DNA of 36,520 nt from a virus (lineage: Duplodnaviria > Caudoviricetes), in the IMG/VR virus record IMGVR_UViG_3300027690_000146, positions 1-36,520 of that record. The stretch is one strand, 5' to 3'. Positions 1 through 36,520 of the stretch are shown piece by piece. The notes beneath the pieces were generated by a model. The model was not told the DNA's origin. It ran no database searches and worked only from the letters and a program-made list of their open reading frames with translations. How positions within the stretch are numbered: position 1 is the stretch's first letter; each line of letters begins with the position of its first letter. A program made the translations under genes and the position numbers.

Positions 1-459
1 TCAGGCAAACATATTGAACCAGGCATAAACGTCATCAGTCCCGGAAACCTGCTTGCCGTAGACCTGGAGGCTGGTGGTGAAGTAAACATCAGTATTCGGC
101 CCGAGAATGTTTGAGCCAGCATAGGTATAGAAGAAGCCTGGGGTGTTGGCCTGGCCCACCACCGTTTTGGTTACGCCGTCAATAACCAGCTTGGTTAGCC
201 GAAAATGCTGGGATGCGTTTTGCTCCACAGAGATGGCCTTGAGGACGCCGCGGCCGGTCTCAGAGAACATCAGCTCCTCGGTGTCCTGGACCTGAAACGT
301 ATATTTGCGGAGGGTGACGGTAGCCTTTTCCGTCAGCAGCTCATAGAGCTTCTTGATGATGTCCGCCAGTGAATTGGCGGCCGGCGGGTTATCCACCGCG
401 GCCTGGTCAATCTTGCGGGTCTGCTTTTTCATCCAGTTTAAAAAGGGCATATCTATCAT
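1..459 (-). CDS. hypothetical protein, possible tail-fibre/receptor-binding associated
   Basis: 152 aa ORF with SD (GAGGAG) upstream, last gene of tail module in the window, beta-rich C-terminus; no recognised motif. Confidence 0.5.
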   Translation of the reverse strand: MIDMPFLNWMKKQTRKIDQAAVDNPPAANSLADIIKKLYELLTEKATVTLRKYTFQVQDTEELMFSETGRGVLKAISVEQNASQHFRLTKLVIDGVTKTVVGQANTPGFFYTYAGSNILGPNTDVYFTTSLQVYGKQVSGTDDVYAWFNMFA

Positions 460-496
460 TTTAAATGCTCCTCAAATGATGGTTCTGAGGCCCAGC

Positions 497-886
497 CTAG
501 GGCGTGGGCACCTGGATTGTGACGGTGCCGGGGTCACCATTGGCATTGTAAGAAAAGACCATCTCCCGGACCTCAGAGCCGTGGGTCAGAGTGATTTTGG
601 TGATGTTCCCGCTGGTGTATTCATAATCCACCGTTTTCCCGTCAGGGAGGGCCACCCTGGCCAGCTCTCCCGTCCCGTCCTCTGAATAGCTCCCTGATTC
701 CCCTGAGTCAAAGTAATAAAACGTGATGGTTTTGGGGGTGGAATTTGAGCAGAGGGCCAGGAATGCGGCCACGCCCTCCATGGCCTTTTTCACAATGTCC
801 AGGTCCCGGTCCTGGATGTTGTTGAGGCTTTCGGAGGTGACCATCATGCTGGGAGCATAATTGGTATGGCGTTCATAGATTTCCAT
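497..886 (-). CDS. short tail-fibre-like protein
   Basis: 129 aa; N-terminus 'MMVTSESLNNIQD' resembles baseplate-attachment N-termini of tail fibres; C-terminus has YD-like hairpins; SD AAGGAG. Confidence 0.5.
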   Translation of the reverse strand: MEIYERHTNYAPSMMVTSESLNNIQDRDLDIVKKAMEGVAAFLALCSNSTPKTITFYYFDSGESGSYSEDGTGELARVALPDGKTVDYEYTSGNITKITLTHGSEVREMVFSYNANGDPGTVTIQVPTP

Positions 887-897
887 GGATCAGCTCC

Positions 898-1107
898 TTA
901 TTCATGCCGCTCCAGGGAGACACAGGCCCACATCACCGCCTCCTCAATTTTGGTCAGGGCCAGGGCCTGCTCCCGGCTCTGGGGACAGAAGCGGGAGACA
1001 AATGACGCCATCTGGCGCCCGAAGTCCCGGATGAATTCATGCTTGGCCGCCTGGAATCCATCCTTTGGCGGATGATGTTTGAAATTGTTGTCAAGGTCAT
1101 AATCCAT
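898..1107 (-). CDS. Acb2/Tad1-like helical-hairpin protein (candidate anti-defence nucleotide sponge)
   Basis: ATG at 1107 with SD AAGGAGG; 69 aa 'NNFKHHPP...CPQSREQALALTKIEEAVMWA' matches the Acb2/Tad1 hairpin pattern as I recall it. Confidence 0.65.
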   Translation of the reverse strand: MDYDLDNNFKHHPPKDGFQAAKHEFIRDFGRQMASFVSRFCPQSREQALALTKIEEAVMWACVSLERHE

Positions 1108-1124
1108 AAATATCCTCCTTAATG

Positions 1125-1682
1125 TTATACACAGAGCCAATCTCGGTCTGTAAGGGAATTGGGATGGTCACACTTGAAACACTCCCTCCTAAATACACCC
1201 AGGGTGTGGGCGGGTTTGAGCTTCTTTATGAGGCGGTCCACATCATAGACAGTGATGCCGGCCGGCATCTCCTCCACCGGTGTCACCACAGAGAAAACGG
1301 CCCATTCATCCTGGCCCTCCGTCTGGTAATGCTCCACCACCTCCACGTCCGTCAGCCCCAGTGTTTCCATGGCCAGGATCATTCCCGGAATGGTGCCGCC
1401 CATCCTATAAATCTCATAAGCATTGGCCAGGCGGGTCCGGTATGTCTCCCAGTCTTCTGATTCCAATTTGAGGAAGCCAATATCCTGGCCACGCCGGCGG
1501 AGCGCCCAATAGCTGGCCAGGCTGACGTAAGCCTGGCGCCGTACCCAATAGATGTCCGCCCGGACCTTTTCGCAGAGCTGGGAGATGGTCATCCAAAACA
1601 GATAAATGCTATTGTTGGCCAGATTCCAGGTCAGCTTGAATGGGCGGAAGCATAAATCCCAGAGGTATTCCAGGAAGGTCAT
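1125..1682 (-). CDS. baseplate wedge/tail protein (P2 gpI / Mu gp48-like)
   Basis: Follows baseplate J; 'E..ETYRTRL..AY..Y..GGT..G' and 'LIKKLKPAHT' motifs. Confidence 0.8.
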   Translation of the reverse strand: MTFLEYLWDLCFRPFKLTWNLANNSIYLFWMTISQLCEKVRADIYWVRRQAYVSLASYWALRRRGQDIGFLKLESEDWETYRTRLANAYEIYRMGGTIPGMILAMETLGLTDVEVVEHYQTEGQDEWAVFSVVTPVEEMPAGITVYDVDRLIKKLKPAHTLGVFRRECFKCDHPNSLTDRDWLCV

Positions 1683-1685
1683 CCC

Positions 1686-2858
1686 TTATTCCTCCTCCTC
1701 CGCCACGGTGACGGTGATGGTGCCCTTGGCAGCCATCTCTCCCTTTTCAATCTCAATCAGGGAGAAGCCACAGGCCAGCCTTTTGATGTCCTCAATATGG
1801 CGCCCCAGGGCCAGAATGATCCGGTCCTGGGTGACGTCCTGGCCCAGCTTGAAGCGCAAATCCTCCACCTCCCAGGTGTCATCCCGGATGAAAAGGGCGT
1901 TGATGATGCTCTCCGCGTCTGCCTGGATGGTGGCCTGGCCGGTGGTGCCGGTCACAACATAAATGGTGATGGTAGCGTTTACGGTGACCGGGGTGGGCGC
2001 CAGCACCAGGGCATCAGAGCAGATGGGCTTTTTGTCATCAATATTGGCCTGGACCTCATCAATGAGGGCCTGAGTAGGAATGCCATTGGTCCCGGTGATG
2101 TAAATGTCCACCGTGCCGGGGCCGCGGGGCCAGGTGTCATCCACCAGGACGTCCACCACGCCATTGATTTCCTTGGCATAGCCCACGTAAGCCAATTTTG
2201 TGCTCCCCCTGGCCAGCTCCTCCCATTTGAGCCTATAACGCTCCCTCAGCTCTGTGTCTGTCTCCTGGTCCGTCCCCTCATCCGTCAGCCAGCCGGCCCG
2301 GTTTTCCACGCCGTCTACTCCGCTAATGGTGGTGATGAGGCGGATGATGGTCAGGGTGCCCACGTTATATTCCGCGCCGGCGCTCTCCGCCTCCACCGGG
2401 ACCGCCACCTCCGCCTGGCCGGATTCCAGAACGGTCTCCTCCGTCACCAGAAAACGATATTCCCGCCCCTGGGAATCCGTGGCGGTGGACATAATAGCGC
2501 CGGCCGGGATGACCACGTTACTGGCCTCCGGTGTCTCCCGGTAAAAACAGACGTTGCCGGCCGTTTTGGTGGCGGGTTTGCGGGTGATGCCAATCTCCCC
2601 CGCCTTCAGGTCCAGCCATCCGCCGGTGGCCGTCTGGGCAAAATGTTGATAACAGACATTGGCCAGAAGGATATAGAAGGAATGGACCGCCCTGGTGAAA
2701 ATCTCCAAAATGGTCCTGAAAATCCCGCCGGGATTGTAATTGGTAATTTGCGGGAGGTTGGTCTGGGCATCCGCAAAAAGGGCATCCCGGATGTCATCCT
2801 CATCCTGCCACAGGAATTCCGTTTGCTCATCAATTTGGTCCATGATGGGGTCAGCCAT
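1686..2858 (-). CDS. baseplate J / Mu gp47 family protein
   Basis: 390 aa; 'TATGGWLDLKA..IGITRKPATK', 'GTDQETDTELRERY', 'RGPGTVDIYI' motifs. Confidence 0.92.
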   Translation of the reverse strand: MADPIMDQIDEQTEFLWQDEDDIRDALFADAQTNLPQITNYNPGGIFRTILEIFTRAVHSFYILLANVCYQHFAQTATGGWLDLKAGEIGITRKPATKTAGNVCFYRETPEASNVVIPAGAIMSTATDSQGREYRFLVTEETVLESGQAEVAVPVEAESAGAEYNVGTLTIIRLITTISGVDGVENRAGWLTDEGTDQETDTELRERYRLKWEELARGSTKLAYVGYAKEINGVVDVLVDDTWPRGPGTVDIYITGTNGIPTQALIDEVQANIDDKKPICSDALVLAPTPVTVNATITIYVVTGTTGQATIQADAESIINALFIRDDTWEVEDLRFKLGQDVTQDRIILALGRHIEDIKRLACGFSLIEIEKGEMAAKGTITVTVAEEEE

Positions 2859-2867
2859 TTATCCTCC

Positions 2868-3206
2868 TCAGAGCGCCCGCCACTGCCCATTGGCATAGAG
2901 ATGGGGGATGGAGCTGGATGTGTTGAAATACATGTCACCCTCCACCGGGCTTTCCGGTGCCACAGGCCCGCACCCACGCCAGCGGCAACAGACGCCAGGG
3001 TGCGGATTCGATGAGACTCCGTGATTATCGAAATCGTCTTTGACGCCATCTATGTCACTCTCGGCCTGGGTAACCCGCCCGTCTAGCGCAGAGAGGCCAG
3101 CGGCCGTGGCAAAGTCCTCCGCGCTCTGTCCGTCCAGCCGGTCCGCATCCAGGCCGGAGCCGGGGCCGTGGACCAGGCGCTCAGGGGTGATTTTTCTTTC
3201 AGCCAT
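2868..3206 (-). CDS. small tail-fibre-repeat protein
   Basis: 112 aa with 'GPGSGLDADRLDG' tail-fibre shaft motif and 'P..PVEGDMYFNTS' C-terminal motif; SD GAGG. Confidence 0.6.
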   Translation of the reverse strand: MAERKITPERLVHGPGSGLDADRLDGQSAEDFATAAGLSALDGRVTQAESDIDGVKDDFDNHGVSSNPHPGVCCRWRGCGPVAPESPVEGDMYFNTSSSIPHLYANGQWRAL

Positions 3207-3215
3207 TGCTGTCCT

Positions 3216-3899
3216 CTACTTTTTGAAATAACAGGCCGTCACCTGGGGCGTATAGCCCGCCACCGGCGCCGGGGCCGTGGTGAATGTGATTGTCCGGCCG
3301 GTCAGGGTGTAATCATCCGGGGCGTCCATGAGCTGGCCATCTAGAAACACCTGGACCGTATTGGCCACCGGCACATTGGCCAGGGTGAAGTCCTTGTTGA
3401 CGCCATCCACCACGCCGGCCGGCTCCTCCCCGTTGATGAAATTCTGGGCGCTCAAATAGTCCGGCATCCAAACCGTCCCGCTCATTTCCACCCCCGCATT
3501 GGTATTGATCCATAGCACCTGGGAGACCGTCTGGCCGCCCTCCACCCAGGTAAAGGTCAGGCCCATGGTCAGGATTTTCTCCGTCCAATCCAGGACCTCC
3601 ACCACCACGGAGCGCCGCAAAATCCGCGGCTCCAGATAGAGCTGGGCCTTGATGGCCTCCGCCAGCTCCGCCCGGCTCAGCGGCACATTGTCCCGGTGGA
3701 GGTAATTGTAATAATCCAGGCCATAGGTCAGATCATAGAACAGCCCGCCCAAAGGCGTGATGAGGCGGTGGCGGACACCTTGCAATAAGCACACCTCATC
3801 TCCACACAACACCAGGTCCCCGCCGGCACCCAGGACAAAATTGCCCTCATCCGTCAAGCGGATGTCCGTTCCCAGCTCTGGAAAATTAAATCCCCTCAT
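3216..3899 (-). CDS. baseplate wedge / sheath initiator (gp25/GPW, DUF2634-like) with C-terminal extra domain
   Basis: 'LGTDIRL...GDLVL...LLQGVRHRLITPLGGLFYDLTYG...L.LEPRI' plus C-terminal 'GVVDGVNKDFTL...VQVFLDG...DYTLTGRTITFTTAP'. Confidence 0.75.
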   Translation of the reverse strand: MRGFNFPELGTDIRLTDEGNFVLGAGGDLVLCGDEVCLLQGVRHRLITPLGGLFYDLTYGLDYYNYLHRDNVPLSRAELAEAIKAQLYLEPRILRRSVVVEVLDWTEKILTMGLTFTWVEGGQTVSQVLWINTNAGVEMSGTVWMPDYLSAQNFINGEEPAGVVDGVNKDFTLANVPVANTVQVFLDGQLMDAPDDYTLTGRTITFTTAPAPVAGYTPQVTACYFKK

Positions 3900-4537
3900 T
3901 CTGCCTTCACCTTGGTTGAGCCTTCCGTTATGATTCCGGTTTTGCCGTCCACCACCACCTGGTCACCCTTGCGGGCCACTTCCTTCCCGGTCTCCCCGGC
4001 CAGGTGGACCTCCGGCGATTCCACCACCACCTTGCTCCCGGTTTTCACCCGGATTTCTGAGCCGGTCAGGCTGACATAGGTGCCGGGGCCATGCTGGATC
4101 ATCACCTGGTCCTGGCGGAGGCGGACAAAGGTCTCCCCCGATAGGTAGAGCGCCACCTCCCCCTCATCCAGGCCAGGCGTCACCCGGCCCAAGGCGCCGG
4201 TGACCACCGGCCAGCTCCAATCCCCGCCCAGGAATGACACAATCACCAGCTCCCCCTTTGCCGGCAGGCCAAAAAGGCCCCGGCTGGCGCCGTTGGTTTT
4301 AGTGCAAATGGGCACCCGGACAATGGGCTGGACCTTTTTGGTGACGCCGGCGCCATCCGTCACCCGGATCTCCTCCTCATTGTTGCGGAGCGGGAGGACG
4401 TCACACAGGTATTGATTGGCCGCCGGATAGACCTTGAGCACCCGCGCCTTTATGGGAAAAGCATATTGCCGGCGGATGTCCAGGCCCGCCCAGCGGAGCA
4501 TCTCCTGGATGGCTGATTTTAGGCTTCCGTCCAGCAC
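3896..4537 (-). CDS. baseplate spike (gpV / Mu gp45-like)
   Basis: OB-fold-type 'GLFGLPAKGELVIVSFLGGD..PVV', beta-helix region, C-terminal 'VARKGDQV...GIITEGSTKVKA'. Confidence 0.85.
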   Translation of the reverse strand: MLDGSLKSAIQEMLRWAGLDIRRQYAFPIKARVLKVYPAANQYLCDVLPLRNNEEEIRVTDGAGVTKKVQPIVRVPICTKTNGASRGLFGLPAKGELVIVSFLGGDWSWPVVTGALGRVTPGLDEGEVALYLSGETFVRLRQDQVMIQHGPGTYVSLTGSEIRVKTGSKVVVESPEVHLAGETGKEVARKGDQVVVDGKTGIITEGSTKVKAE

Positions 4538-4540
4538 CGT

Positions 4541-5386
4541 TTAAACCTCCCTAAAAAACAGGACGGTCCGGGCCTTGAATCCGCGCTGAATGTGGCGGAC
4601 CTCCTCAATACGATAGCTCCCGGAGATTTTGGCCAGGGTGGAGTCCGCAATGGAGACCATCATGGAATGGTCAAAATATGGCCAGGGATGAATCACCACC
4701 CGGCCCAGCTCCCCGCCGGCCTTGGGCGCCTCCAGCTCAATGATGTTCACCTTATTGGCCAGGGCCAGGTCCTTCCGGCAATCATTCCGGCCATTGGTCT
4801 CATCCTCCCAGGGCGCCCAATGGAAGCGGCCCTCCCCGTCCGTCCACCAGCGGAGGGTATCGACATCCCGCCCCCACTGCTCCGCCAGGGCCGTTTTGGA
4901 TTTCAGGAGGGCCTCCTGGATGGTCTCCCCGGTGGCCACCCAATGGGGCCAGGCCACATCAAAGCGGGTGGACACCCGCGCCGGATTCATGCCGGCCTCC
5001 GCGGCCAGGCGTTTGATGATTTGGCTGGTGATTTCTCCGCGGGTATTGGTGACGGTCCGGGCGGTCAGGAGATTGGCGCCGGCATCCGTGGCCCAGACTC
5101 TGACCGTTTTGGCATCATTGACGTCCCGCACCTGGCCGGAGAAAACGGTGACCACGTCCTCCTCCAGGCCCCAGCTCAGGCTGACCTCATCCCCCGGCTG
5201 GATCAGGCCGGAATAGACGCCGGCCTCCGGCGCCTGGATGTTTCCAATTTGGAATTCCAAATATTTGGCCACCGCATCCCGCCGGCTGATGAGGGTGAAA
5301 TCAGGACATTTCTGCTCATAAGGCTGGCCGGCCACCGTCAGGGTGGCCTCCATCGCCGCGTAGAGTAAAGCGCTGGATTGGCTCAT
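4541..5386 (-). CDS. baseplate hub / late control D-like protein
   Basis: Position before spike; 'GDEVSLSWG...VFSGQV' and 'SGSYRIEEVRH...GFKARTVL' motifs. Confidence 0.75.
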   Translation of the reverse strand: MSQSSALLYAAMEATLTVAGQPYEQKCPDFTLISRRDAVAKYLEFQIGNIQAPEAGVYSGLIQPGDEVSLSWGLEEDVVTVFSGQVRDVNDAKTVRVWATDAGANLLTARTVTNTRGEITSQIIKRLAAEAGMNPARVSTRFDVAWPHWVATGETIQEALLKSKTALAEQWGRDVDTLRWWTDGEGRFHWAPWEDETNGRNDCRKDLALANKVNIIELEAPKAGGELGRVVIHPWPYFDHSMMVSIADSTLAKISGSYRIEEVRHIQRGFKARTVLFFREV

Positions 5387-5919
5387 GGTCCGGGCGCCTC
5401 CTCATCCGCGCCAGGGGTGCCCTGGCCGCTTGGGTATTCCGGCACCACCGCCAGGCTGGCGGCCTCCGTGGCGGCCGCGGCCTGATTGGCCTGGGTGACG
5501 TTGTTTTTTATCTGCTCCGCCAGCGGGATGAATTCCTCCAGCCAGATGGTGGCCTGGAGGGTGTCATCCTCATTGGTCTCCTCTGTCTCCAATTGCCGGA
5601 TGAGGACGGAGGAGATTTGACGGGCGTTTACATGGACGTTTGAAATGGAATGTATCTGGGGCTTGCTCTGTTCTGTCTTGCGGAATAGGGCATGGAGGGC
5701 GCCGGCCAGGTCATACGGGGAGCCGCCGTCCTCCGCCACCAGGCGGAGGATGATTTCAATATTGCCCTCATCATAGCCCGCGGGGAGCTTGAGGTGCCCG
5801 TCCAGGTCCTGGATGGGCAGCTCATCAATGATGATATTGGCGCCCACCCGGAGCCGCTGTAAATAGCCCGGCAAAGGCGCCCCGTCTATCTTGATGATTC
5901 CCGCGCTGATGTCCGGCAT
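5383..5919 (-). CDS. tail tube initiator / baseplate-associated protein
   Basis: 178 aa directly after tape measure, overlapping-stop coupling with next gene; synteny. Confidence 0.55.
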   Translation of the reverse strand: MPDISAGIIKIDGAPLPGYLQRLRVGANIIIDELPIQDLDGHLKLPAGYDEGNIEIILRLVAEDGGSPYDLAGALHALFRKTEQSKPQIHSISNVHVNARQISSVLIRQLETEETNEDDTLQATIWLEEFIPLAEQIKNNVTQANQAAAATEAASLAVVPEYPSGQGTPGADEEAPGP

Positions 5920-5927
5920 TTATCACC

Positions 5928-8837
5928 TCAGAACATGGCCACGTTGCGGCCGAATTCCCGCGCCAGCTCCCGGCCAAAATCAGTCTCCTCCCGGCCGGCC
6001 TCCCTGGTCAGGCGGCCCTGCTTGGCGCCCGGCGCCACACTCCCGCCCATCTGGATCATGATTCCCGCCAGGTGGCGGATGGCCTTCACCAGCTCCCGGC
6101 TGGCCGCCACCATCTCCGCATTCTCCGGCCGGAGGCCACCGGCCTCCCGCCGCTCCGTCCCGCCCGCCTCCGGCGCCCGGCTCTCCACCAGGCCCGGCTC
6201 CCGCGGGATGGCCCTGGCGGCCACCTCTATGGAGACCGGGGAGACAGACGCCGCGGCCGCTTTGGCCACCGGCTCCCGCGCCACCGCCGTGGTGACCACC
6301 TGGATGGGCGCCGCGGGGACATTGACCACGGCTGCCGGCGGTGCCAGATTCTCCGGCTCCCGCGCTACCGCCTTGGGGACCACCTGCATGGGCGCCGGCG
6401 GTGTCAGATTCACGGGCTCCCGCGTCACCGCCTTGGTGACCACCAGAATGGGTGCCGCGGGGACATTGACCACGGGTGCCGGTGGCATCAGGCTTGCCAC
6501 CTCCGGCCGCCCTCCGGCGGCCGCTGCGGCCTGGGCCTGACCTGCCGCCTGGATCATCCCCGGCCCAGCGGCTGGCGCTTTAGCTCCCGGCGCCCACTCC
6601 TCAAAGCCGGCCAGGAGAGCCAACTTGGCCTCATTGATAGCCCACCGCTTGGCCTTGCCCTTGCCCATGGCCTCATCAGTCTTTTGCTGGACCTTATTGA
6701 TGGCGTCCAGGGCTTGATTGGTCACTTGCTCCGTTTGCTGGGCCGCCTCCGCCATCCCCGTTTTAAAGGCGCCGCTGATGCTGTCTCCCAGGCCGGAAAA
6801 AAGCCCCTTGCCCTCCTCCACGTATAGGTTGCTAAAATCCAGGAGGGCGCCCGCGTCCTTCTGGATTGTTTCTTTCACCTTGTCCGCCGCCGATTTGATG
6901 CCGGACACCACCTGCTCCGGGGTCACTTCCCGGAGGAGCTGGATGGGCTCTTTGCCCAGGGCTTTCCGCGCCAGGTTAATAATCCGGATAAATTGGTTGA
7001 TTTGCTTGATGCCCATGTTGATGATGCCGGTGACGGTGCCAATGAGCACCTCCGCCATAAAGCGGGCAATATCGCTGATGGGCACTTTGACGCCCGTGAT
7101 TTTCTTGATGACTGTCTGAATGATAGTCAGGGCCAGATTACCCAGACGGGTGAAGGCCCCGCTTGCAAACGCCACCAGCTTCCCCCAGACCTCCGGCAAT
7201 TTGGCGGTGATGCTTTTGATTTTTTCCCACCAGGTAGCCAGGGTGATGGTCACCATGAGCATGGGGGACATCATCATCAGGGCGCCCTTGAGCCAGATGC
7301 TCATCCGGCCGATGATGGCCCGCGCCTCATCCCAGCGCCGGGTCATCACGTATACATGGAAGGCAAGGGCGGCCACGGTGCCCACCACCGCCACCAGAAT
7401 CCAGGTGATGGGATTGGCCAAAACAGAAGCGGTGAAACGCCAGGAGGCGGCCGCTGCTGAATTCATGGCCACCCGTATGGCGCCCAGGGTGGCCGGTACA
7501 TCCTTCCAGATCCGCGCCGGGTTCGCCAGGGTCAGCGCCCGGCCCAACATGCCGGAGGCGCCGGTCATGCCGGTCATGAGTTTGAGGCCGCCCCCCAGGG
7601 TAAACTGAAACGCTCCCAGCGCGATCCGCGCCAGGCCCAAGGTCAGGATGAAGCCTCCCAGGGCCACCGCGCCCTTGACTATATAGCTGGTCAGACGGGG
7701 GTGGGCATGCATCAGGTCCACCACAGAGCGGAGGACCGGCTTGATTTCTCCCAGCAACTCCGTCACCGTGGGCAATAGCTCATTTCCGATGGTGATGGTG
7801 ATTTCAGAGATTGAGCTTTTGAGCTGGTCCCACTTGAATTTTGCGGATTCCTTCATCTTCTGGAAGGCCGCCTCCATGGCGCCGCCGGCGCCCTTCATCC
7901 CCTCCGCAGTCTCCAGGAATAGCTCCATGTTATTGGCCAGGGCGGAAAATCCTTTGGCCGCCCGGACCTCCGGGATGACGTCCCGGATTTCCGCCAGGGT
8001 GGACGTCTTGCTCCCCAGGATGCGGACCGCCTCCACCAGGTCACCGGCGGCCACCGCCGCCTGAAGCTCCGCCCCGCCCATTTTCTGGAGGGCCTCCTCC
8101 GCAATGGAGGACGGCGCGGCAATGGCCTGGACGAGACCGCGGAGGGCGGTGACCGCCTCCGGGGTCCTGATGCCGGCCTTGGTCATCACCGCCAGGGCCG
8201 CTCCCACCTGCTCCACCGGGATTTTGGCCGCGGCGGCAATGCTGGTGACCTCCCCCATGTAAGCGCCCAGCTCTGGGAATGTGGTGACACCGAGCTGGAC
8301 TGTGCGGAAAAGCACATCATACACCCGGCCCAGCTCTGTCACCGGGAGCTGATAGGCGTTCAGAATATTGGCTCCCAGGGTGGCGGCCGTATTGACATCC
8401 GTCACCCCGGAGATGGCGGCCTTTGCGCTGAGGCTCAAAAAATCCAGGGCGCCGGCGGCCGGGATGCCGGCGGAGAGCACATTGTAAAGGGCGTGGCCCA
8501 TGGTATCGGGCACCTGGCCAAAGTCAGACGACAAGCGTAGCACACCGGCCGACAGGGCATGAAGGTCCGTGGTGGTGTCCTGGATCATGGTGGACACCTC
8601 CGCCATCCGATGCTCAAAACTGGCCGCCGCCGGCACAGTGGCCAGGAAGGGGGCGGCAATGGCGGCTCCCACGCCGGCCATAATGGCTCCGCCCTTCATG
8701 TTAGCCATGCCGGCTTCCAGCATCCGTGTGGAGGCGGAGAGCTTTTCCACCTCCCGGTTGATCTGGCCGATTTTCCCGGAGGCCGCATCATAGGCATTGA
8801 TGATGATGCCCAGCCTCATCAAAGGGCTTCTAGTCAT
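5928..8837 (-). CDS. tail tape measure protein (TP901-type core)
   Basis: 969 aa Ala-rich helical; 'AASFEHRMAEVST', 'LGVTTFPELG' core motifs; central hydrophobic segments; start may be ATG 8819. Confidence 0.92.
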   Translation of the reverse strand: MTRSPLMRLGIIINAYDAASGKIGQINREVEKLSASTRMLEAGMANMKGGAIMAGVGAAIAAPFLATVPAAASFEHRMAEVSTMIQDTTTDLHALSAGVLRLSSDFGQVPDTMGHALYNVLSAGIPAAGALDFLSLSAKAAISGVTDVNTAATLGANILNAYQLPVTELGRVYDVLFRTVQLGVTTFPELGAYMGEVTSIAAAAKIPVEQVGAALAVMTKAGIRTPEAVTALRGLVQAIAAPSSIAEEALQKMGGAELQAAVAAGDLVEAVRILGSKTSTLAEIRDVIPEVRAAKGFSALANNMELFLETAEGMKGAGGAMEAAFQKMKESAKFKWDQLKSSISEITITIGNELLPTVTELLGEIKPVLRSVVDLMHAHPRLTSYIVKGAVALGGFILTLGLARIALGAFQFTLGGGLKLMTGMTGASGMLGRALTLANPARIWKDVPATLGAIRVAMNSAAAASWRFTASVLANPITWILVAVVGTVAALAFHVYVMTRRWDEARAIIGRMSIWLKGALMMMSPMLMVTITLATWWEKIKSITAKLPEVWGKLVAFASGAFTRLGNLALTIIQTVIKKITGVKVPISDIARFMAEVLIGTVTGIINMGIKQINQFIRIINLARKALGKEPIQLLREVTPEQVVSGIKSAADKVKETIQKDAGALLDFSNLYVEEGKGLFSGLGDSISGAFKTGMAEAAQQTEQVTNQALDAINKVQQKTDEAMGKGKAKRWAINEAKLALLAGFEEWAPGAKAPAAGPGMIQAAGQAQAAAAAGGRPEVASLMPPAPVVNVPAAPILVVTKAVTREPVNLTPPAPMQVVPKAVAREPENLAPPAAVVNVPAAPIQVVTTAVAREPVAKAAAASVSPVSIEVAARAIPREPGLVESRAPEAGGTERREAGGLRPENAEMVAASRELVKAIRHLAGIMIQMGGSVAPGAKQGRLTREAGREETDFGRELAREFGRNVAMF
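6190..6485 (-). repeat. imperfect tandem repeats in tape measure C-terminus (PAP..VV.KAV.REP units)
   Basis: CCGCGGGGACATTGACCACGG at 6311-6331 and 6455-6475; four 'REP'-ending peptide units. Confidence 0.8.
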
Positions 8838-9016: not shown

Positions 9017-9021
9017 TTCCT

Positions 9022-9327: not shown

Positions 9328-9362
9328 TTGCTCCTCCTTAAATTAGGTAAGGGTGCCGCCAA

Positions 9363-28820: not shown

Positions 28821-28844
28821 AGAATATAGTAGCCAAGAAGTAGA

Positions 28845-29301: not shown

Positions 29302-29759
29302 CGTAATACCTCACTGGCGACCTCCCCGGCCAGCCGGGCCTTCCGCATCCTCTCAAGCGCCGCCTTGATGGGGGTGACCTTGTCCGCCGGAATCCAGCGG
29401 ACATCCCCGATTCCAAAACGCGCCTGGAGGAAATTGCGGAAGGCCGCATCCGTTGGCGTCCGCGCCACATCCCGCCAGATAGCCTCCAGCATGCGGAGCT
29501 GACGGGGCGCCGCCATCTCCCCCGGCCGGCGGCCCAGGTCATCATATTTCCGGCGGGGCGCGGCCTGGGGCCGGGTGGAGTATCTGGGCTTGAAGCCCTT
29601 CTCCTCCAGGTAGCGGAGCACCAGGGCCAGCTCCCGCTCCTCCATCTCCGCGGTGGAGCGCTTGCGGGTCAAATCCCAGAGAATGTCCCGGTAAAGGTCA
29701 TCATCCAGGCCCAGCTCCTTCTTGCCGATATGGATCAGGGCTTTATAATTCCTGGACAT
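29298..29759 (-). CDS. gemA: GemA / Mu gp16 (DUF1018) regulatory protein
   Basis: 'LIHIGKKELGLDDDLYRDIL..LT.KRS..EM...EL..VL..L...GF' and 'QLRMLEAIW'. Confidence 0.9.
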   Translation of the reverse strand: MSRNYKALIHIGKKELGLDDDLYRDILWDLTRKRSTAEMEERELALVLRYLEEKGFKPRYSTRPQAAPRRKYDDLGRRPGEMAAPRQLRMLEAIWRDVARTPTDAAFRNFLQARFGIGDVRWIPADKVTPIKAALERMRKARLAGEVASEVLR

Positions 29760-30027
29760 TTGCCACCGCCTCCTGGCCGATTTGATAGGCAAACTTCCGG
29801 TCTCCCACCTGGCGGCAGGTGACGGGGATGCCGTTGGCCCGCAATTCCGCCACCGCGGAATTGACGGCGCAAACCCGCGCCGTCATCACAATCTCCCAGG
29901 TGGTGTGTTCCTGGCCGTCAGAAAGAACCCGGAGCACCCGCTGAAGGCGGGGGCTGTTTTGCAATCGGGCAGTATGGATTTTTCCCACCGTGTCCTCCAA
30001 TGATATGGATGGCCGGCGCCGCGTCAT
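29743..30027 (-). CDS. winged-helix DNA-binding protein
   Basis: 'SPRLQRVLRVLSDGQEHTTWEIV..A.VCAVNSAVAELRANG..VTC'; frame is open further upstream so start is uncertain. Confidence 0.7.
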   Translation of the reverse strand: MTRRRPSISLEDTVGKIHTARLQNSPRLQRVLRVLSDGQEHTTWEIVMTARVCAVNSAVAELRANGIPVTCRQVGDRKFAYQIGQEAVANVQEL

Positions 30028-30200
30028 TCCGCGGTCACCAGGGCCGTCACCCTGGACAGGTCCCCGCCGGCCATAAAGGTCACAAGAAAACGGCGGAGGC
30101 ACCGGGGTCATCGGCCGCTGATTTTTCGGGAAAAGCCAGTCCTGAAATCCCATCATAGCAGCTCTCCCGGCCTCCGCCGTCAAGATTGGTTGTATTCCAC

Positions 30201-30285
30201 AATGGCTCAGCATCATCAGCCCGCGGTCGCCACTCCGCGGAGACCGGCCGCCGGCGGTGCCGTCCCGCCTTTGGCCGGTTTCGCC
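30201..30285 (-). ncRNA. type II hammerhead ribozyme with loop I / 3'-tail pseudoknot
   Basis: GGC-GAAA-CCGGCC...GGCCGG-UC-UCCGCGG-AGUGGCGA-CCGCGGG-CUGAUGA-U-GCU-GA-GCCAUU; all core nucleotides, GUC cleavage triplet, three stems, AGUGGC/GCCAUU pseudoknot. Confidence 0.88.
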
Positions 30286-30288
30286 TTT

Positions 30289-30816
30289 TTATGGTTTGGA
30301 GGACCAACTTGGCGTCTGCTTCACAATCTCCTCTCTCTTTACCTCAAAGAAGAAATCCTCACTGATTTCCCTGGTGGCGTCCACCTGGGCCAGGACGTCA
30401 TCCGGCAAATCCCTCATGGCTTCCTTGTTCACGCTCTCCACCAGCCGAATAAATGGCAACAGGTCCAGCTTTTTGAGGAGGGCCAGGGTGGTTTTCTTGA
30501 TCCTGATCTTGGTGGATTTGCGGAAGCCCAGGACACCAAAATTCAGCTCCAGGGATTTGCGGCCCTTGGGCAGGATTTCCTCCCGGTGGGCCTTGCCGAA
30601 AGCCTCCAGCGCCAGCTCCAGCTCTTTCATTCGCGCCTTCTTGGGGGCGATTTGTTCCGCCGCAAAAACCTTCACCTTGTCGATTTCAATTTCCGCTTCC
30701 GCCTGGATGGCCTCCGCCTCCAGGTTCAGAATGCCCATCTCCAGGAGGGCCTCATCCGCCGCGGCCAGGTCCGGGAGGGTTATGATGTTGTCAGGTTTCT
30801 TTCTGAGCTTCCCCAT
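30289..30816 (-). CDS. gam: Gam-like host-nuclease inhibitor (DNA end protection)
   Basis: 175 aa coiled coil then 'KSLELNFGVLGFRKS' and 'IRLVESVNKEAM...EDFFFE'. Confidence 0.9.
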   Translation of the reverse strand: MGKLRKKPDNIITLPDLAAADEALLEMGILNLEAEAIQAEAEIEIDKVKVFAAEQIAPKKARMKELELALEAFGKAHREEILPKGRKSLELNFGVLGFRKSTKIRIKKTTLALLKKLDLLPFIRLVESVNKEAMRDLPDDVLAQVDATREISEDFFFEVKREEIVKQTPSWSSKP

Positions 30817-30829
30817 TGTATCCTCCCCG

Positions 30830-31078
30830 TTATTGCGCCAGGTCCAGCATCTGGACGCGCTTGCGGAGCTGGTGCAATTCCCGCTCCATCATGTCCAGCC
30901 CCAGCAGAATCCGCCACTGATCCTCTCCGGAGCGAACCATCTCCTCCAGGGAGGAGGTCCGGGAGAGCAAATCATCAATTTGTGAATCCATCATTTTTTT
31001 CTGGCTGTCCAGGAAACCGGAGCGATTCACCACCGCCGCGGCCGCAAGGACAGACGAAGTAGGCATCCCTTTAGGCAT
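30830..31078 (-). CDS. hypothetical protein
   Basis: 82 aa with SD GGAGG in early operon. Confidence 0.6.
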   Translation of the reverse strand: MPKGMPTSSVLAAAAVVNRSGFLDSQKKMMDSQIDDLLSRTSSLEEMVRSGEDQWRILLGLDMMERELHQLRKRVQMLDLAQ

Positions 31079-31093
31079 TGTTTTCCTCCATAA

Positions 31094-31303
31094 TTACGGT
31101 TTAATCTCGTGATACATACCAACATCCAGGCGGACCAGGCCGGCCCGTCGGAGATTGTCCAGGGCCTCCTCTGCTTCCGCCTGGGTGATATTCGGGTTTC
31201 CTTTGCGAATCCGTCTGATGAGGGACTCCTTGTCCGCCGGCAGGAAACACAGAATCAATTTCTCCAATAACGTGATTTTTCCCAGGAGCACATTCATGGC
31301 CAC
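31094..31303 (-). CDS. small winged-helix-like protein
   Basis: 'ITQAEAEEALDNLRRAGLV'; SD GGAGG (ATG 31297 possible). Confidence 0.55.
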   Translation of the reverse strand: MAMNVLLGKITLLEKLILCFLPADKESLIRRIRKGNPNITQAEAEEALDNLRRAGLVRLDVGMYHEIKP

Positions 31304-31308
31304 CTCCC

Positions 31309-31632
31309 TCAGATGGACCGATTGTCACAGGTGGGACACGTCAAATAGAGCCGGAGCCGCTCAGGATTGCCGGTGGCCAGCTTTCCATAGCGTTTGGCCG
31401 CCCGGCAATGCTGGCGGCACTCCACCACCGGGATTTCACCCAGAATCGGGCAAGCAACAGATGTATTGGCGCCGTAGGTCCTCATGACCTTTTCCTCAAT
31501 CCGCTGGGTGGAGGCGCCATATTTGCCATTGATGACCAGGGAGATGGTGGTTTTGCTGACGGCCAGCTCATCCGCCACTATGCCCAGGCCCCGCTTTCCC
31601 ACTTCCGCCTTCAGCATCTCCAGCCACATCAT
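31309..31632 (-). CDS. XRE-type HTH protein with Cys-rich C-terminus
   Basis: 'VADELAVSKTTISLVINGKY', 'V.CPILGEI...C...C', 'CPTC'; typical of Mu-like early regions. Confidence 0.8.
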   Translation of the reverse strand: MMWLEMLKAEVGKRGLGIVADELAVSKTTISLVINGKYGASTQRIEEKVMRTYGANTSVACPILGEIPVVECRQHCRAAKRYGKLATGNPERLRLYLTCPTCDNRSI

Positions 31633-32045
31633 TCATCACCCCCCTCGGTGGTCCGGTTCTCTGCCAGGCGCCGGGCCTTGTGATGCTGGCGCCGGAGCTG
31701 GTCCACCACCTTCTCCGGGTCCCCCAGGTGATATTGATCCGTATTGGGATCATAGACCAGGTCCACGGTTTTGGCCACCGGGTGGAGCGGGCCAGTGTCC
31801 TTCACCAGCCGGAAAAAGACGGTCCGGCCGCGATTGCCCACCGGCACCACCCGCGCCCGCCGGATGTAACCCGTCCGGGCCAGGCTGGCGATATAATCAC
31901 GGGCATTCTTGATGCCGGCTTCAGCGGTCTCCGCAATGTCCGCCGCGGTGAATTCCCCCGGCCATTTTCTGATGACTGTCCACATCCGCTCCCGGTCACT
32001 GTTGACGGCCACCCGGTTTGAATTCATCATTACTTGATGGTCCAT
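31629..32045 (-). CDS. winged-helix protein downstream of MuB-like gene
   Basis: 'RERMW.VIR...FTAADI', 'YIASLARTGYI', 'RLVKDTGP..P...VYDPN'. Confidence 0.75.
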   Translation of the reverse strand: MDHQVMMNSNRVAVNSDRERMWTVIRKWPGEFTAADIAETAEAGIKNARDYIASLARTGYIRRARVVPVGNRGRTVFFRLVKDTGPLHPVAKTVDLVYDPNTDQYHLGDPEKVVDQLRRQHHKARRLAENRTTEGGDE

Positions 32046-32725
32046 TCCCTCACCTCCGCCATGGTCACCTTATCCTGGCCGTTGGTCCGGGCCAGGCGTT
32101 CCAGCCGTTTCAGCAGGACAATGGATTTGCGGAAATTGCCGTCCGTCTGATTCCGCACCCAGCCAATCACATCGCCTTCCAGGGCCACGGAAATGATGTC
32201 TGTGGCGGCTAGGCGGATGTCCTTCTCCGCCAGGTTCTGGAATTCCAGGACGTGGAGAAAGCGGTCACTCAGGGCGGCAAAACGGTCCAGCTTCCGGCGG
32301 ACCTGATCCATGCCCACCAGGATGATGGGGGCGCTGGTGATGTCATGCACATCCCGGATGGTCTCCAGGACATCGGGGGAAATCAGGTCCGTCTCATCAA
32401 TGATGATGAGGCGTGGTTCGGCAGTGAGCGCCGCGGTAACTTCCCGGTACATATCCCGGAAGGCGCGGGCCGGGGCAAGCATCAGCTCCACACACATCTC
32501 CTCCATGAGCCAGGTGGGAGTCCACTTTCGTTTGGCCCGGAGATAGACACTTTTATTGCTGGTCCGGGCCGCATACCACAGGGCGGTCCGGGTTTTCCCC
32601 AGGCCCCGCTTGCCGTACACCAGGCCCATCCCCGGCACACCGGCGGTGACCTCCATCAGCTCCCTGGCAATTCCGGCAAAGTTTTGGACGTTTTGGGTTT
32701 TGATAAAAACAGAATTCAGCGCCAT
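32030..32725 (-). CDS. MuB-like AAA+ transposition ATPase
   Basis: Walker A GKRGLGKT, Walker B IIIDE, 'PIILVGM'; follows transposase. Confidence 0.92.
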   Translation of the reverse strand: MALNSVFIKTQNVQNFAGIARELMEVTAGVPGMGLVYGKRGLGKTRTALWYAARTSNKSVYLRAKRKWTPTWLMEEMCVELMLAPARAFRDMYREVTAALTAEPRLIIIDETDLISPDVLETIRDVHDITSAPIILVGMDQVRRKLDRFAALSDRFLHVLEFQNLAEKDIRLAATDIISVALEGDVIGWVRNQTDGNFRKSIVLLKRLERLARTNGQDKVTMAEVREWTIK

Positions 32726-32741
32726 GTAGACCTCCTATAAT

Positions 32742-34880
32742 TTAGAATTGCGCGTTGCAAACATCCACATAGTCAGGAAATTCCGCCTTGAACCAGGAGA
32801 GCCACTCCCGCTCCTCCCGGCTCAGCCCCTGGCGGCTGGCCTTATCGGCCAGGTGGTCAGCCCTTGTATAGGGATTGGTGAAAACTGGCTCCTCCGCTGG
32901 GGAGGGTGTCCGGTTGAATTCTACGATTTTGCCGGCGGCCGGCGGCTCCGGGAGGGTGGCCGCCAGGGCCACCATCTCCGGCTGGCGCCGGGCGGGCTGG
33001 TCGAAATGGGCCTCCACCGCTGGGAGGTCCACCCCTTCCAGTTGCCACGGATTGTCTCCCTGATCCAGCTCCGGCACCATCAACCGGTCCAGGAAGCCCA
33101 GGCCGGCATCCAGCTCCGCCTTGAGCGCCCGGCGGACCTCCGCCTCCTGGCGCCGCTGGAGCCGGATTTTCCGTTTGACGGATTCATAATCCGCGCCTTT
33201 GGCCAGGGGGTGCTCCGCGGCATCATGCCGGGCCATGGCAATGAATTGGTCATCCAGGGTGAACACAAACATGGCCCGGAGATTGGTGAGGGAGTATCTG
33301 ATTTTGACCAGGCCGGACAGGTGGAGCAGCTCCTCTGCAAAATAACGGATTCCGAATTTGGAGAACATGCAATTACTGATTCGGGCCGTGTCCTCCAGCA
33401 GCATGGCGGCCGCCAGGTGGGCCGGATTCACGCCCGGCCCGCGGCCGGCGGAGAACAGGGCCGCCGGGGTGGCGCCGTCCAGGCCGCGGTGGGACCGGCT
33501 GGCGTATTGCATGAAATAGCGGGCCAGTACATCATTGGCCTCCTCCACCGTCAGGATGGTCTCCCCCGGATAGAGTGCCCGGAGCTGATCCTCATTCCGC
33601 TTCATGAGCCAGGGCTTGTCCATGATATTCCGGCCGGTATAGCCGGCCATCATCCGCTCTGCCTGATTCAGGGTGCCGAAAAAACGCTCCACGGATTTGG
33701 CCCTGGCGTTATAGGGCCAGGCAAAATGGGCCTCAATTCCCAGACGGGCATAGAGGCCCTGGATGCCGGCCTGGGTCAGGTCCGCATCCCGGAGGCCGCC
33801 GGTGAATGCTTTGGCTTTAAAAGCCTTCCCGTTGTCTAAGATGACCGCTTTGGGGATTTTGCCGAGTGTAAGAATGCTATTGTAGAGGGCGGAGTGGATG
33901 CACTGGATGTTTTCCTGGGGCATGATTTCCCAGCCCAGGGGCATCCGGCTTCTCATATCGTAGAAAAGCACCATGGTCATCCGGGCGGGCTTGCCGGTGT
34001 ATGGATTGATAATTTGGAAATTAAGCCGGTGACCATCCGCCACGAGAATCTCCCCCACTTCTAGGGCAGATGAATCACGGCTGATGAAGTAGGCATTTTT
34101 ATCACGGAAAGCCTTGCCACCATCCCTGGCCATGGTCCAGACGGCGGCATTGCGGTCCCGATAGGATTGGCACCAGCGGACATATGTGCGGATGGACGGA
34201 TGAGGCCGCCCCTCCCGCTCCATGGCCTCCGCCACCTGGCGGGCCGCCTCCGTGAGGGTGGGCCGGTTGGGGTGGAGGAGGATGGCCTTGAGCATATTTT
34301 TCTCATCATGGCTGAGGCTCAGGTGCCCTTTGTTATGGGGCCGCCGGTATCCACAGATGGCCGGCCATCCGCCGGCCTGGTATTGCGCGGCCCAGGTGTA
34401 GAGGGTTTTGATAGACCGCACCCGGCCGGCTTTGGCCCGGATCAGGCGGAGGACGTTGCCGGCATTGTAGTCAGCCAGCCAGCGCTCCAGATGATCCATC
34501 ACCTGGACACCCGGCCGCCGGCGGGCATAGTCCTTCTCCATCAAAAATGCCTCCACCAGGTCCGCCCTGGCCAGGCCAATCTGGCGATATTTCCGCGGGA
34601 TTTCCGTCTCCGCTGGTGGAGGCGGGGGCGTTTTTTCTTCGATAAATTGGGGCGCGGGGAGGGTGGCGGGTGACGTGGAGGAGGGCAAGGTGTAGGTGGT
34701 TGAGTCCTTCAGGACTGATTCCCGGACATCCGTTGGCAGGTGGGCCGCGCTATATAAGCGCGTTTTGCCGCCGCGCCCCGTGGTTATCTCATAGGGCCAA
34801 TTTTCCGTGTTGGCCCTTTTCACCACCGCCCGCTTGCTCAGGCCGGTGGCCATGGCAATATCAGAGGCGGACATTCTCAT
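32742..34880 (-). CDS. MuA-like DDE transposase
   Basis: N-terminal Mu-type DNA-binding domain ('RA..ENW....GRGG...Y...LP'); catalytic 'VADGH', 'LDNGKAF', 'KSVERFF'. Confidence 0.93.
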   Translation of the reverse strand: MRMSASDIAMATGLSKRAVVKRANTENWPYEITTGRGGKTRLYSAAHLPTDVRESVLKDSTTYTLPSSTSPATLPAPQFIEEKTPPPPPAETEIPRKYRQIGLARADLVEAFLMEKDYARRRPGVQVMDHLERWLADYNAGNVLRLIRAKAGRVRSIKTLYTWAAQYQAGGWPAICGYRRPHNKGHLSLSHDEKNMLKAILLHPNRPTLTEAARQVAEAMEREGRPHPSIRTYVRWCQSYRDRNAAVWTMARDGGKAFRDKNAYFISRDSSALEVGEILVADGHRLNFQIINPYTGKPARMTMVLFYDMRSRMPLGWEIMPQENIQCIHSALYNSILTLGKIPKAVILDNGKAFKAKAFTGGLRDADLTQAGIQGLYARLGIEAHFAWPYNARAKSVERFFGTLNQAERMMAGYTGRNIMDKPWLMKRNEDQLRALYPGETILTVEEANDVLARYFMQYASRSHRGLDGATPAALFSAGRGPGVNPAHLAAAMLLEDTARISNCMFSKFGIRYFAEELLHLSGLVKIRYSLTNLRAMFVFTLDDQFIAMARHDAAEHPLAKGADYESVKRKIRLQRRQEAEVRRALKAELDAGLGFLDRLMVPELDQGDNPWQLEGVDLPAVEAHFDQPARRQPEMVALAATLPEPPAAGKIVEFNRTPSPAEEPVFTNPYTRADHLADKASRQGLSREEREWLSWFKAEFPDYVDVCNAQF

Positions 34881-35251
34881 GAGTCCACCTCCTCAAATAG
34901 AGGGAGCTGGCCGGTTTGAAATTTCCGCTTCAGGCGGGCGTTCCGCCGCTTCAGCTCCGCAATGGAGTTTTCATTTTTCAGGATTTCAAATAATAGCTGA
35001 TCCTTCTCGGAAATGGCCACCAGGCTCATCTCTTTCAGGAGAGCCTCAATCAATTTGTTATTGCCCACCGCCCGACAGAAGGCCGGGGTGAACTCCAGCG
35101 GGAAGCGGTGGAGCCTTTTGCTTTCCGCGGTCCAGGCGTTAAGCATGGCCACGGTGACCTCCTGGCCGGAGGCGTCACTCATCCGCTCCGCTATTTGCTC
35201 TCGGCTGAGGCGGGACTGACTGATGATTCCTGATAGAATGACTGGAAGCAT
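34877..35251 (-). CDS. phage regulatory protein, CII-like
   Basis: 'LSREQIAERMS...VT.AMLNAWTAESK..HRFPLEF..AFC.A.G'. Confidence 0.75.
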   Translation of the reverse strand: MLPVILSGIISQSRLSREQIAERMSDASGQEVTVAMLNAWTAESKRLHRFPLEFTPAFCRAVGNNKLIEALLKEMSLVAISEKDQLLFEILKNENSIAELKRRNARLKRKFQTGQLPLFEEVDS

Positions 35252-35268
35252 GCCCCTTCTCCTGTTGC

Positions 35269-35520
35269 CTAACTGGCCACCCGTTTCTTGACATCATCAA
35301 ATAGTGCTTCATATTCCAGCCCCAGGCGTTGGCAAAGGTGCCGCGCCAGGCGCTTATTCCGGCGCTGTCCCTTGATGACGTGGGAGAGATGCTGGGGTGT
35401 AACGCCGGCCGCCAGGGCAAATTCCCTCTGGCGGAGTCCCTGGTCAATGAGGGCTTTTTTGATTTCCCGCTCCCTGGTGGTGGAAAATAATTCCTGATCC
35501 TTAGACATTGCCTTTTCCAT
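35269..35520 (-). CDS. Ner/Cro-like HTH regulator
   Basis: XRE HTH 'IKKALIDQGL..REFALAAGVTPQHLSHVIKG.R'; first early gene, divergent from repressor; start may be ATG 35508. Confidence 0.82.
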   Translation of the reverse strand: MEKAMSKDQELFSTTREREIKKALIDQGLRQREFALAAGVTPQHLSHVIKGQRRNKRLARHLCQRLGLEYEALFDDVKKRVAS

Positions 35521-35545
35521 CTCCTGGCGTTATATTGATAGCATC

Positions 35546-35563
35546 GGGCTGATTTATCAGCCC
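35546..35563. promoter_or_regulatory. perfect 8-bp inverted repeat at early transcription start (candidate Ner operator)
   Basis: GGGCTGAT-TT-ATCAGCCC just downstream of the -10 box. Confidence 0.55.
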
Positions 35564-35568
35564 ACTCT

Positions 35569-35597
35569 AATTTAAATGAATATTGTGCTTGTGTCAA
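35569..35597 (-). promoter_or_regulatory. early promoter (Pe-like)
   Basis: TTGACA-17 bp-TAAATT upstream of the Ner-like gene. Confidence 0.75.
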
Positions 35598-35665
35598 GCA
35601 CAAATGTAGAGTCGTCCAGCAATATTATCTTTTTTGGGATATTGTTTTTTAAACCATAACGGCCT

Positions 35666-35792
35666 GGTTCCCACTTTCAATATTGTAAATTGCCATTAAT
35701 GGAAGCATATATGGTTTAATTTGAATAAGATGCGCGAAGTGAGAACCAGCGAAGAAAGTTCCCACTTTAGTTCCCACTTTGGTTCCCACTTT
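35666..35792. repeat. array of RGTTCCCACTTT 12-mers (operator / transposition enhancer-like)
   Basis: Copies at 35666-35677, tandem triplet 35757-35792, and an inverted variant GAAGTGAGAACC at 35736-35747. Confidence 0.8.
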
Positions 35793-35815
35793 CATTTAAA
35801 TTTTGGGAGGTGGTT

Positions 35816-36520
35816 ATGATGGGTAAGAGCAATGAAATTGGAGCGCGGCTCCGGGCCTTCCGGTCTGGGAGGGGATTGAACCAGCAGGATTTTGCTGCTA
35901 TGATGGAGGTCTCTTATTCCATGCTTCAGAAATATGAACAAGGACGGAGTCTCCCTGGCGCGGAATCACTGGCCAAATTAAATCAATATTTTGATTTAAA
36001 CATCAATTGGTTGCTGACTGGACAGGGGAGCATGACCGCCACTTCCGTGGCCAGGCCGGAGGGCCACTGGGGCCTCCCCCTGCTCTCAATGGCCGGCATA
36101 AACGCCGGCGCGGTGACAGAGGATGGCATCCGGGAGGGGGCCATCCAGGAACCGGATTATGGATATTTTCCTACTCATTATTTAGAGCGGTGCTTACCCA
36201 GGTTCTCCCCGGATCTGGTGAAATGGCTTTTCATGGCCCAGGCGCCGGACAATAAAATGACTCCCACTATTTTCCAGGATGAGGTGGTGATGGTTTGCGG
36301 CCAGCCCGGAATCTCCTTCCAGCAGGGCGGCATCTATCTCCTCCGCAATCCCTTTGAAAACCTGCCCGCCATCCGCCGCGTCTTCCTGACGGAAAAGGTT
36401 GTCTTGCTCCATTGTGATAATGTCCAGCATAAGATGACCAAAATTCCCATCCCGGATGACCAAGCCCTGGAGAACCTGATTGTGGGCCGGGTTTGCTGGA
36501 CAAGCAGAATACTTGTTTAA
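35816..36520 (+). CDS. phage repressor, XRE HTH + degenerate S24 domain
   Basis: 'IGARLRAFR..RGLNQQDFA...YEQGRSLP...INWLLTGQG'; C-terminal S24 fold motifs 'GGIY', 'L.CDN', 'IVGRVCW'; SD GGGAGG, ATG at 35816 or 35819. Confidence 0.88.
   Translation: MMGKSNEIGARLRAFRSGRGLNQQDFAAMMEVSYSMLQKYEQGRSLPGAESLAKLNQYFDLNINWLLTGQGSMTATSVARPEGHWGLPLLSMAGINAGAVTEDGIREGAIQEPDYGYFPTHYLERCLPRFSPDLVKWLFMAQAPDNKMTPTIFQDEVVMVCGQPGISFQQGGIYLLRNPFENLPAIRRVFLTEKVVLLHCDNVQHKMTKIPIPDDQALENLIVGRVCWTSRILV

Follow-up and report, generated by a model that had tools for sequence, protein, structure and literature searches.

A lineage-specific depletion of TCG/CGA in a Mu-like prophage, possibly reflecting graded selection by a host defence system

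Gene Content of the Prophage

The window analyzed here is the whole stretch of 36,520 nucleotides (nt) of the IMG/VR virus record IMGVR_UViG_3300027690_000146 (Duplodnaviria; Caudoviricetes), in which the phage backbone is depleted of the trinucleotide TCG and its complement CGA (TCG/CGA). Assignments by PHROGs and Pfam identified it as a Mu-like transposable prophage with nearly all genes on the minus strand, encoding a Mu DDE transposase, a MuB ATPase, Gam, GemA, MuF, and a Mu portal, along with a contractile tail and a terminase. The terminase aside, this set is common to Mu-like transposable phages such as BcepMu and phiE255 (portal 42% identical). Long matches of the transposase to protein representatives reached at most 47% identity. 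The record is listed as a provirus with 73% completeness, and it ends in tail genes, with the tail-fibre end lying outside. Passages of PMC3299994 place mom/hia5 of Mu-like phages at an end whose counterpart here is outside this record.

Two backbone arms enclose an AT-rich island. The left backbone (1..24640) includes the baseplate, tail, head, portal, terminase, and lysis genes, encoded with few exceptions on the minus strand, and the right backbone (29320..36520) includes GemA, Gam, MuB, the transposase, and repressors. Among the minus-strand genes, the large subunit of the terminase (19621..21129) was used for polarising the loss of TCG/CGA, the Mu-type portal (18020..19621; PF06074, E 6e-108) contains seven TCG/CGA sites in 1602 nt, and the Mu-type DDE transposase is at 32742..34880 (phrog_310, E 5e-98; PF02914 and PF09299). 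The island (24640..29320, 41% GC) is undepleted and provides an internal control. It encodes, on the plus strand, a Type IIG restriction-methyltransferase of 939 amino acids (26001..28820; PADLOC REase_MTase_IIG, E 9e-201; motifs PD..EVK, DPACGSG, and NPPY) and a membrane protein (24853..25536) with a weak DUF6338 match below the cut-off (Pfam E 6e-4).

Extent of the TCG/CGA Deficit

The initial annotation, made from the sequence alone, had described an extreme avoidance of TCG/CGA on both strands across positions 1-36520. Its manual counts were exact (2 in 5941-7020, 2 in 18001-18900, and 10 in 26001-26160) and the avoidance was real, TCG/CGA being the most depleted among the 32 trinucleotide pairs. 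The word extreme was an overstatement: the backbone loss was about 5-6-fold rather than near-total, and the intervals 5941-7020 and 18001-18900 are among the emptiest stretches. The claimed extent likewise held for both backbone arms but not for 24640-29320.

Under a Markov model, the observed/expected (O/E) ratio was 0.32 in the whole window, 0.21 in the left arm, and 0.28 in the right arm, compared to 1.00 in island positions 24541-29030 and 0.88, at the same GC content, in the host DNA that flanks the prophage on the parent contig L001. There were 147 sites in 1-24540 and 53 in 29301-36520, corresponding to 6.0 and 7.3 sites per kb, respectively, and densities of 26.9 per kb in the island and 35.6 per kb in the host flank. 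Change points were found at 24640, 29320, and approximately L001:11280, the last being the phage-host boundary; the depletion runs about 1.2 kb past the right end of the window and stops there.

Both the Markov and the codon-shuffle nulls that had been proposed as checks were run, and the deficit persisted under each. The codon null was a shuffle that kept the protein sequence and the codon usage. It predicted 1063 sites in 42 backbone genes, where 183 were observed. At codon junctions, CGA occurred 73 times against 623 expected and TCG 91 times against 408 (z -9 to -30), giving a combined ratio of 0.16 (164/1031) and depletion of both strands. The deficit remained when TCGA was set aside (153 of 810 sites left), and the non-coding backbone was also depleted (7 sites against 29 expected). 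CpG itself was not lost, with an O/E of 0.76-0.78, and GC content, general CpG loss, and codon usage were ruled out as causes. A dicodon-preserving null cannot test a 3-mer, because each 3-mer sits within one dicodon.

Comparison with a Sister Phage and Other Mu-like Loci

A syntenic sister phage (L319), with 76% nucleotide identity over 5289 aligned nt, had a TCG/CGA O/E of 0.90. Only 17 of the sister's 177 aligned sites were retained in the prophage, the lowest retention among 32 words (p 6e-29), with 160 sites present only in the sister and 19 only in the prophage. In the terminase gene, five sites were found against 44.5 expected (0.11), while the sister had 56 against 56.9 (0.98) and nine outgroups ranged from 0.94 to 1.19. 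As the sister and the nine outgroups are normal, the loss arose on the branch of this phage.

A similar deficit was found in none of the 297 related loci that were scored, some of which repeat contigs (147 of 160, at least 5 kb; 69 of 74; and 81 of 82, at least 4 kb). Among the Mu-like relatives by portal and terminase, the lowest O/E was 0.64, compared to 0.23 here. Single-protein locus scans with the portal, the transposase, and the capsid identified no close relatives, and two clade-specific scans recovered only L319.

Positions, Flanks, and Replacements

Third-base choice was analyzed in a conditional-logit model with codon and junction terms. Without a split by flank, the odds ratios were 0.074 for the C of CGA, 0.080 for the G of CGA, 0.153 for the C of TCG, and 0.21 for the T of TCG. 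In G/C flanks, they fell to 0.056, 0.041, 0.105, and 0.083 in the same order, with overlapping intervals, the corresponding values in the sister being 1.08, 0.55, 0.76, and 0.44, while in A/T flanks, where the surviving sites are located, the four positions ranged from 0.16 to 0.45. The flank effect was one-sided, lying chiefly 3' of CGA (odds ratio 0.05 for CGASS and 0.32 for CGAWW), that is, in the two bases 5' of TCG. All 16 xTCGy contexts were low (0.01-0.42) and formed a smooth gradient, with VSTCG contexts approaching 0.05.

The replacements for the lost bases bear on mutation as the sole cause, either through context-specific cytosine methylation and deamination (C>T), as the initial annotation had offered, or through T>C repair of the Vsr (very short patch) type, whose signature is the conversion of only the T position to C. 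At four-fold sites before GA, the observed frequencies of A, C, G, and T were.12,.05,.71, and.12. A pro rata removal of C, as under selection, predicts.11,.06,.65, and.17, while a 13-fold C>T rate predicts a T frequency of.30-.40. In the sister alignment, C was replaced by G in 30 of 37 changes. Hence, the deamination model was rejected, since T was not enriched at four-fold sites and positions other than C were also hit; in G/C flanks the T position was affected as strongly as the C positions, which C>T changes cannot achieve. The Vsr model was rejected as well: the C and G positions were depleted at least as strongly as T, and T>C repair is powerless where only C is free. In favor of mutation, T does replace C at two-fold sites (C fraction 0.07 before GA versus 0.39-0.57), and CTAG and CCAA are low in both the phage and its flank, which we take to be a Vsr-like signature. 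An equal rise of all exits from C would mimic selection, but solely at the C positions. With these points combined, mutation alone is largely refuted and very improbable. Selection on the word, which the initial annotation had also suggested, fits the pattern in that every free position was hit and the lost C was redistributed in proportion to the other bases, chiefly to G.

Other Depleted Words and Restriction Sites

Besides TCG/CGA, ten 6-bp palindromes were nearly eliminated, with 5 of 217 left, while the sister retains them. Losses of this kind are what Type II restriction usually leaves behind. The zero counts of GGATCC (0/33), GGGCCC (0/25), GCGCGC (0/18), and CAGCTG (0/15), all kept in the sister, evidently point to defence pressure on this lineage. 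Only particular sites were purged: the overall O/E of 6-bp palindromes was 0.75, an unremarkable value when compared with 87 GC-rich Mu-like loci, and GAATTC, GGCGCC, and GCCGGC were in excess. Further depleted words in the backbone included GATC (55/140), GCACG (5/37), CTGCG (9/55), CTCTTC (0/11), and, under the codon shuffle, GAACT (6/50). The length of orthodox Type II sites (4-8 bp) fits these separate 6-bp palindromes but not TCG/CGA, and their near-elimination differs from the 183 of 1063 TCG/CGA sites left.

Such losses raise the possibility, considered rather unlikely, that the deficit is the sum of ordinary 4-6 bp restriction sites with a CGA core, encountered in one host after another and added to a slight background bias. 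The many words of known type purged in this lineage (the ten palindromes, CTCTTC, GCACG, CTGCG, and GATC) are consistent with it, as are TCG contexts that are almost gone, such as CTCGC (1/85), CGTCG (1/91), and GTCGT (1/43), compared to AATCG (35/43). However, the lowering of every context along a smooth gradient argues against such a sum, and TCGA together with six TCG palindromes covers a small share of the 880 missing sites. For the same reason of too few sites, TCGA alone or TCG-containing 6-bp palindromes were rejected as the whole target. No spaced partner was prominent either. For bipartite CGA-N(3-9)-TGC words, a deficit was not clear: N6, the BcgI site, occurred four times against 2.5 expected, and N7 and N8 had zero against 2.5, numbers too small for a judgement. 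In addition, the classes that could supply varied asymmetric sites are reported, in passages of Rusinov et al. (PMC6286503), as not avoided (Type I and Type IIG) or little avoided (Type III).

The Island and the Search for a Responsible Enzyme

The slot between the early and lysis genes that contains the island is occupied in the sister (L319:2100-6650) by an unrelated Type IIG enzyme of the MmeI family, which shares 22% identity with the Eco57I/TaqI-C type enzyme found here. The slot at 24640-29320 is therefore a swappable defence cassette across the two sister phages. The resident Type IIG enzyme was considered an unlikely cause of the deficit, as its own gene is unpurged, a different Type IIG occupies the slot in the sister, and Type IIG sites are reportedly not avoided. 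The island may have arrived later than the purge.

As the initial annotation had stated, no responsible enzyme was found in the window by PHROGs, Pfam, and PADLOC scans. Besides the Type IIG, no window gene had a DNA-modifying annotation; about a quarter of the phage genome is outside the record. A broad adenine modifier encoded in the missing genome end was also considered and set aside, as sites containing A were purged too, which would argue against such protection.

Host Flank, Junction, and Survey of Host Genomes

Contig L001 continues from the prophage into cellular genes, including Hsp33, GH106, and an amidohydrolase. One flank gene, which matches a protein from an Acidobacteria genome at 83% identity, is the only basis for considering the host probably Acidobacteriota-like; the nearest Hsp33 relatives are 39-46% identical. 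Flanking host DNA has no deficit (O/E 0.88 over 8.7 kb, a minor part of the host genome), which bears on the question of a host-shared bias raised earlier and speaks against amelioration of the phage to its present host. Within this flank (L001:11360-20031), CTAG occurred zero times compared to 168 for CCAG/CTGG, and tandem paralogues of a dockerin-amidohydrolase gene were observed.

The junction crosses short repeats (L001:11192-11355), where a short host repeat with the core GTGACAGAGCCTGGC was observed that recurs at 18430-18456, and read depth falls from 84 in the phage to 45-52 in the flank. The doubled phage depth suggests two copies or active transposition. Both features would also be compatible with a chimeric contig that joined the phage to a wrong host, one form of an artefact, the other being codon usage. 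An artefact is the least probable of the explanations considered, with only a slight chance of being correct: the deficit survives the codon-preserving null, the contrast with the sister and outgroups is independent of the flank, and a chimera would remove only the argument from the host flank. Additionally, the phage ends directly at a partial copy of a repeat found again in the flank, which favors a real insertion.

A survey of host genomes compared the word SSSTCGSSS to its mirror SSSGCTSSS in about 960 distinct genomes of four phyla (301 Acidobacteriota, 252 Desulfobacterota, 75 further Desulfobaccales, 201 Bacillota, and 132 in the phylum of a genome titled Cyanobacteriota). Three of the Acidobacteriota genomes are flagged as unpublished and count toward this total alone. 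The phage ratio was 3:71 (0.04, 95% interval 0.01-0.13), and no genome among those surveyed was as low, the minimum, as read off tables, being about 0.18. These results bear on the possibility that the signature was taken from an unsampled former host lacking TCG/CGA, through repair or mutation bias or self-avoidance, before a recent move to the present host. Milder genome-wide deficits do exist, with ratios of 0.33-0.77 in 83 Desulfobaccales genomes and as low as about 0.18 among Bacillota (Markov O/E was 0.47-0.96 in pieces sampled from genomes with low ratios), the phage differs from its flank in other words too, and the survey spans only four phyla. The Desulfobaccales also share with the phage the word, the direction of the flank effect, and a similar GC content. 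However, their deficit is weaker by a factor of about four (odds ratio 0.56 versus 0.15), centering on the T position (0.22) with little at C and G (0.50-0.62), whereas the phage lost sites at all positions. Portal-bearing prophage-like pieces in Desulfobaccales had O/E of 0.75-0.91, and the background words CCC, CTA, ACT, and CCAA are already common to the sister. A former host as the source thus appears unlikely.

A Mu-like portal match was observed in 65 of the 83 Desulfobaccales genomes (e.g., L278-L290), mostly in one copy and at 25-36% identity. These copies possibly represent an order-wide domesticated Mu-like or gene-transfer-agent cluster.

Additional Features of the Prophage

The MuF protein (16432-18105, minus strand) matches phrog_35295, and a HEXXH-type motif (WHEILH) was spotted by eye in its C-terminal extension. 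The C-terminal domain was considered as a DNA-modifying toxin and rejected, as searches gave no nuclease or deaminase match. An atlas search with positions 16016-16435 returned nothing that scored above 0.86. Among the tail genes, a small gene at 898-1140 (minus strand) contains an Acb2/Tad1 hairpin domain (PF24729, E 6e-13), and its product is likely an anti-CBASS/Thoeris signal sponge. Between divergent repressors at 35665-35800 (L001:9206-9346), four to five copies of GTTCCCACTTT were found, which are likely operator sites.

Discussion

The loss itself, its restriction to one lineage, its action at every free position, the gradient with flanking bases, and the parallel purge of ten palindromes were all directly observed. 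Graded selection by a host defence that reads CGA(SS) was considered the best explanation, with a probability of about 0.40. Under this scenario, about five-sixths of CGA/TCG would have been lost through silent changes on both strands after the split from the sister, as a defence reading the DNA in a long-term host made every copy of CGA costly, above all those followed by G or C. The approximately 200 copies left and the graded loss suggest a small cost per site, expressed as a deficit of 10- to 25-fold where the flanks are G/C and of 2- to 6-fold where they are A/T, in contrast to classical Type II sites, which would be purged in an all-or-none manner. The agent may have been a low-efficiency, nicking, or modification-dependent system, for which the risk scales with the number of sites, and the present Acidobacteriota-like host may be immune to it or a recent host. 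A more specific proposal, which is possible but doubtful, invokes an anti-phage system, so far undescribed, in a sediment bacterium. This system would recognise asymmetric CGA/TCG in double-stranded DNA, binding more tightly where the 3' flank is G/C-rich, and would damage or mark foreign DNA according to site number, with the phage genome being its evolutionary footprint.

Several observations weigh against graded selection by a host defence. The approximately 200 sites that remain exclude a fully active cutter, and no enzyme or host system behind the purge was found in the sequence covered. The T of TCG is the weaker position without the flank split (0.21 versus 0.07-0.15), equal to the Desulfobaccales value, and the Desulfobaccales combine a milder TCG deficit with the best overall signature match (r 0.7-0.79); their genome-wide deficit indicates that this word can be subject to a force acting across a whole host genome. 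For the polarity of the purge, a single close sister (12.8 kb) provides the evidence. Finally, the backbone modules are unequal (ratios 0.12-0.33, p 6e-4), and other words were lowered relative to the sister, including AAC (odds ratio from 1.0 to 0.52), GCA (from 0.63 to 0.41), and GATC. The fall of these words and the differences among modules imply that several pressures acted.

Restriction-site avoidance in double-stranded DNA phages likewise removes short words from both strands by silent changes, and the ten palindromes gone here correspond to it; compared to the cases in passages of Rusinov et al. (2018; PMC6286503), TCG/CGA differs in being an asymmetric word of 3 bp, in its graded rather than complete loss, and in the temperate lifestyle of the phage, for which those passages report restriction-site elimination to be rarer. 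A closer parallel in word length is the depletion of the protospacer adjacent motif (PAM) of CRISPR-Cas systems, published for phages by Kupczok and Bollback (2014; PMC4246573) and Ortega-Sanz (2025; PMC12174588), whose passages, as here, involve words of 2-3 nt, codon junctions, and a synonymous-shuffle null. TCG or CGA could itself be the PAM of a host CRISPR-Cas, with fewer PAMs leading to fewer protospacers. A PAM is 2-5 nt long, acts on both strands, and carries a cost that grows with number, and both a short word low on both strands and a one-sided flank effect are present here; passages of PMC3737346 describe TCG as interference-positive for S. solfataricus I-A2, which has the PAM TCN. 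Nevertheless, a TCN motif should lower TCC and TCA as well, yet both are enriched in the phage, and TCG without TCC and TCA was not among the PAMs in the literature passages covered. The Cascade of T. tenax did not cleave TCG according to passages of PMC4005679. The effect here is also far larger, the strongest group in the passages of PMC4246573 having a median log-ratio of -0.59, with log base not stated, compared to a junction ratio of 0.16. A PAM was therefore judged quite improbable.

Motif avoidance in phages is already known and is usually attributed to restriction sites of 4-8 bp or, weakly, to PAMs. What appears to be new is a six-fold purge of an asymmetric 3-bp word polarised by a sister phage: a literature search that covered few subscription journals turned up neither TCG/CGA depletion in any phage nor an earlier purge of this kind. 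In a temperate phage with an unaffected sister, such a purge on both strands would point to a selective agent with a target shorter than those of classical restriction enzymes. The motif and its flank rule, CGA followed by G or C, may be used for screening host methylomes, PAMs, and metagenomic defence libraries. Should the cause instead be a sum of ordinary sites or a host with an extreme signature, the deficit would still be a record of the past hosts of an uncultured phage.

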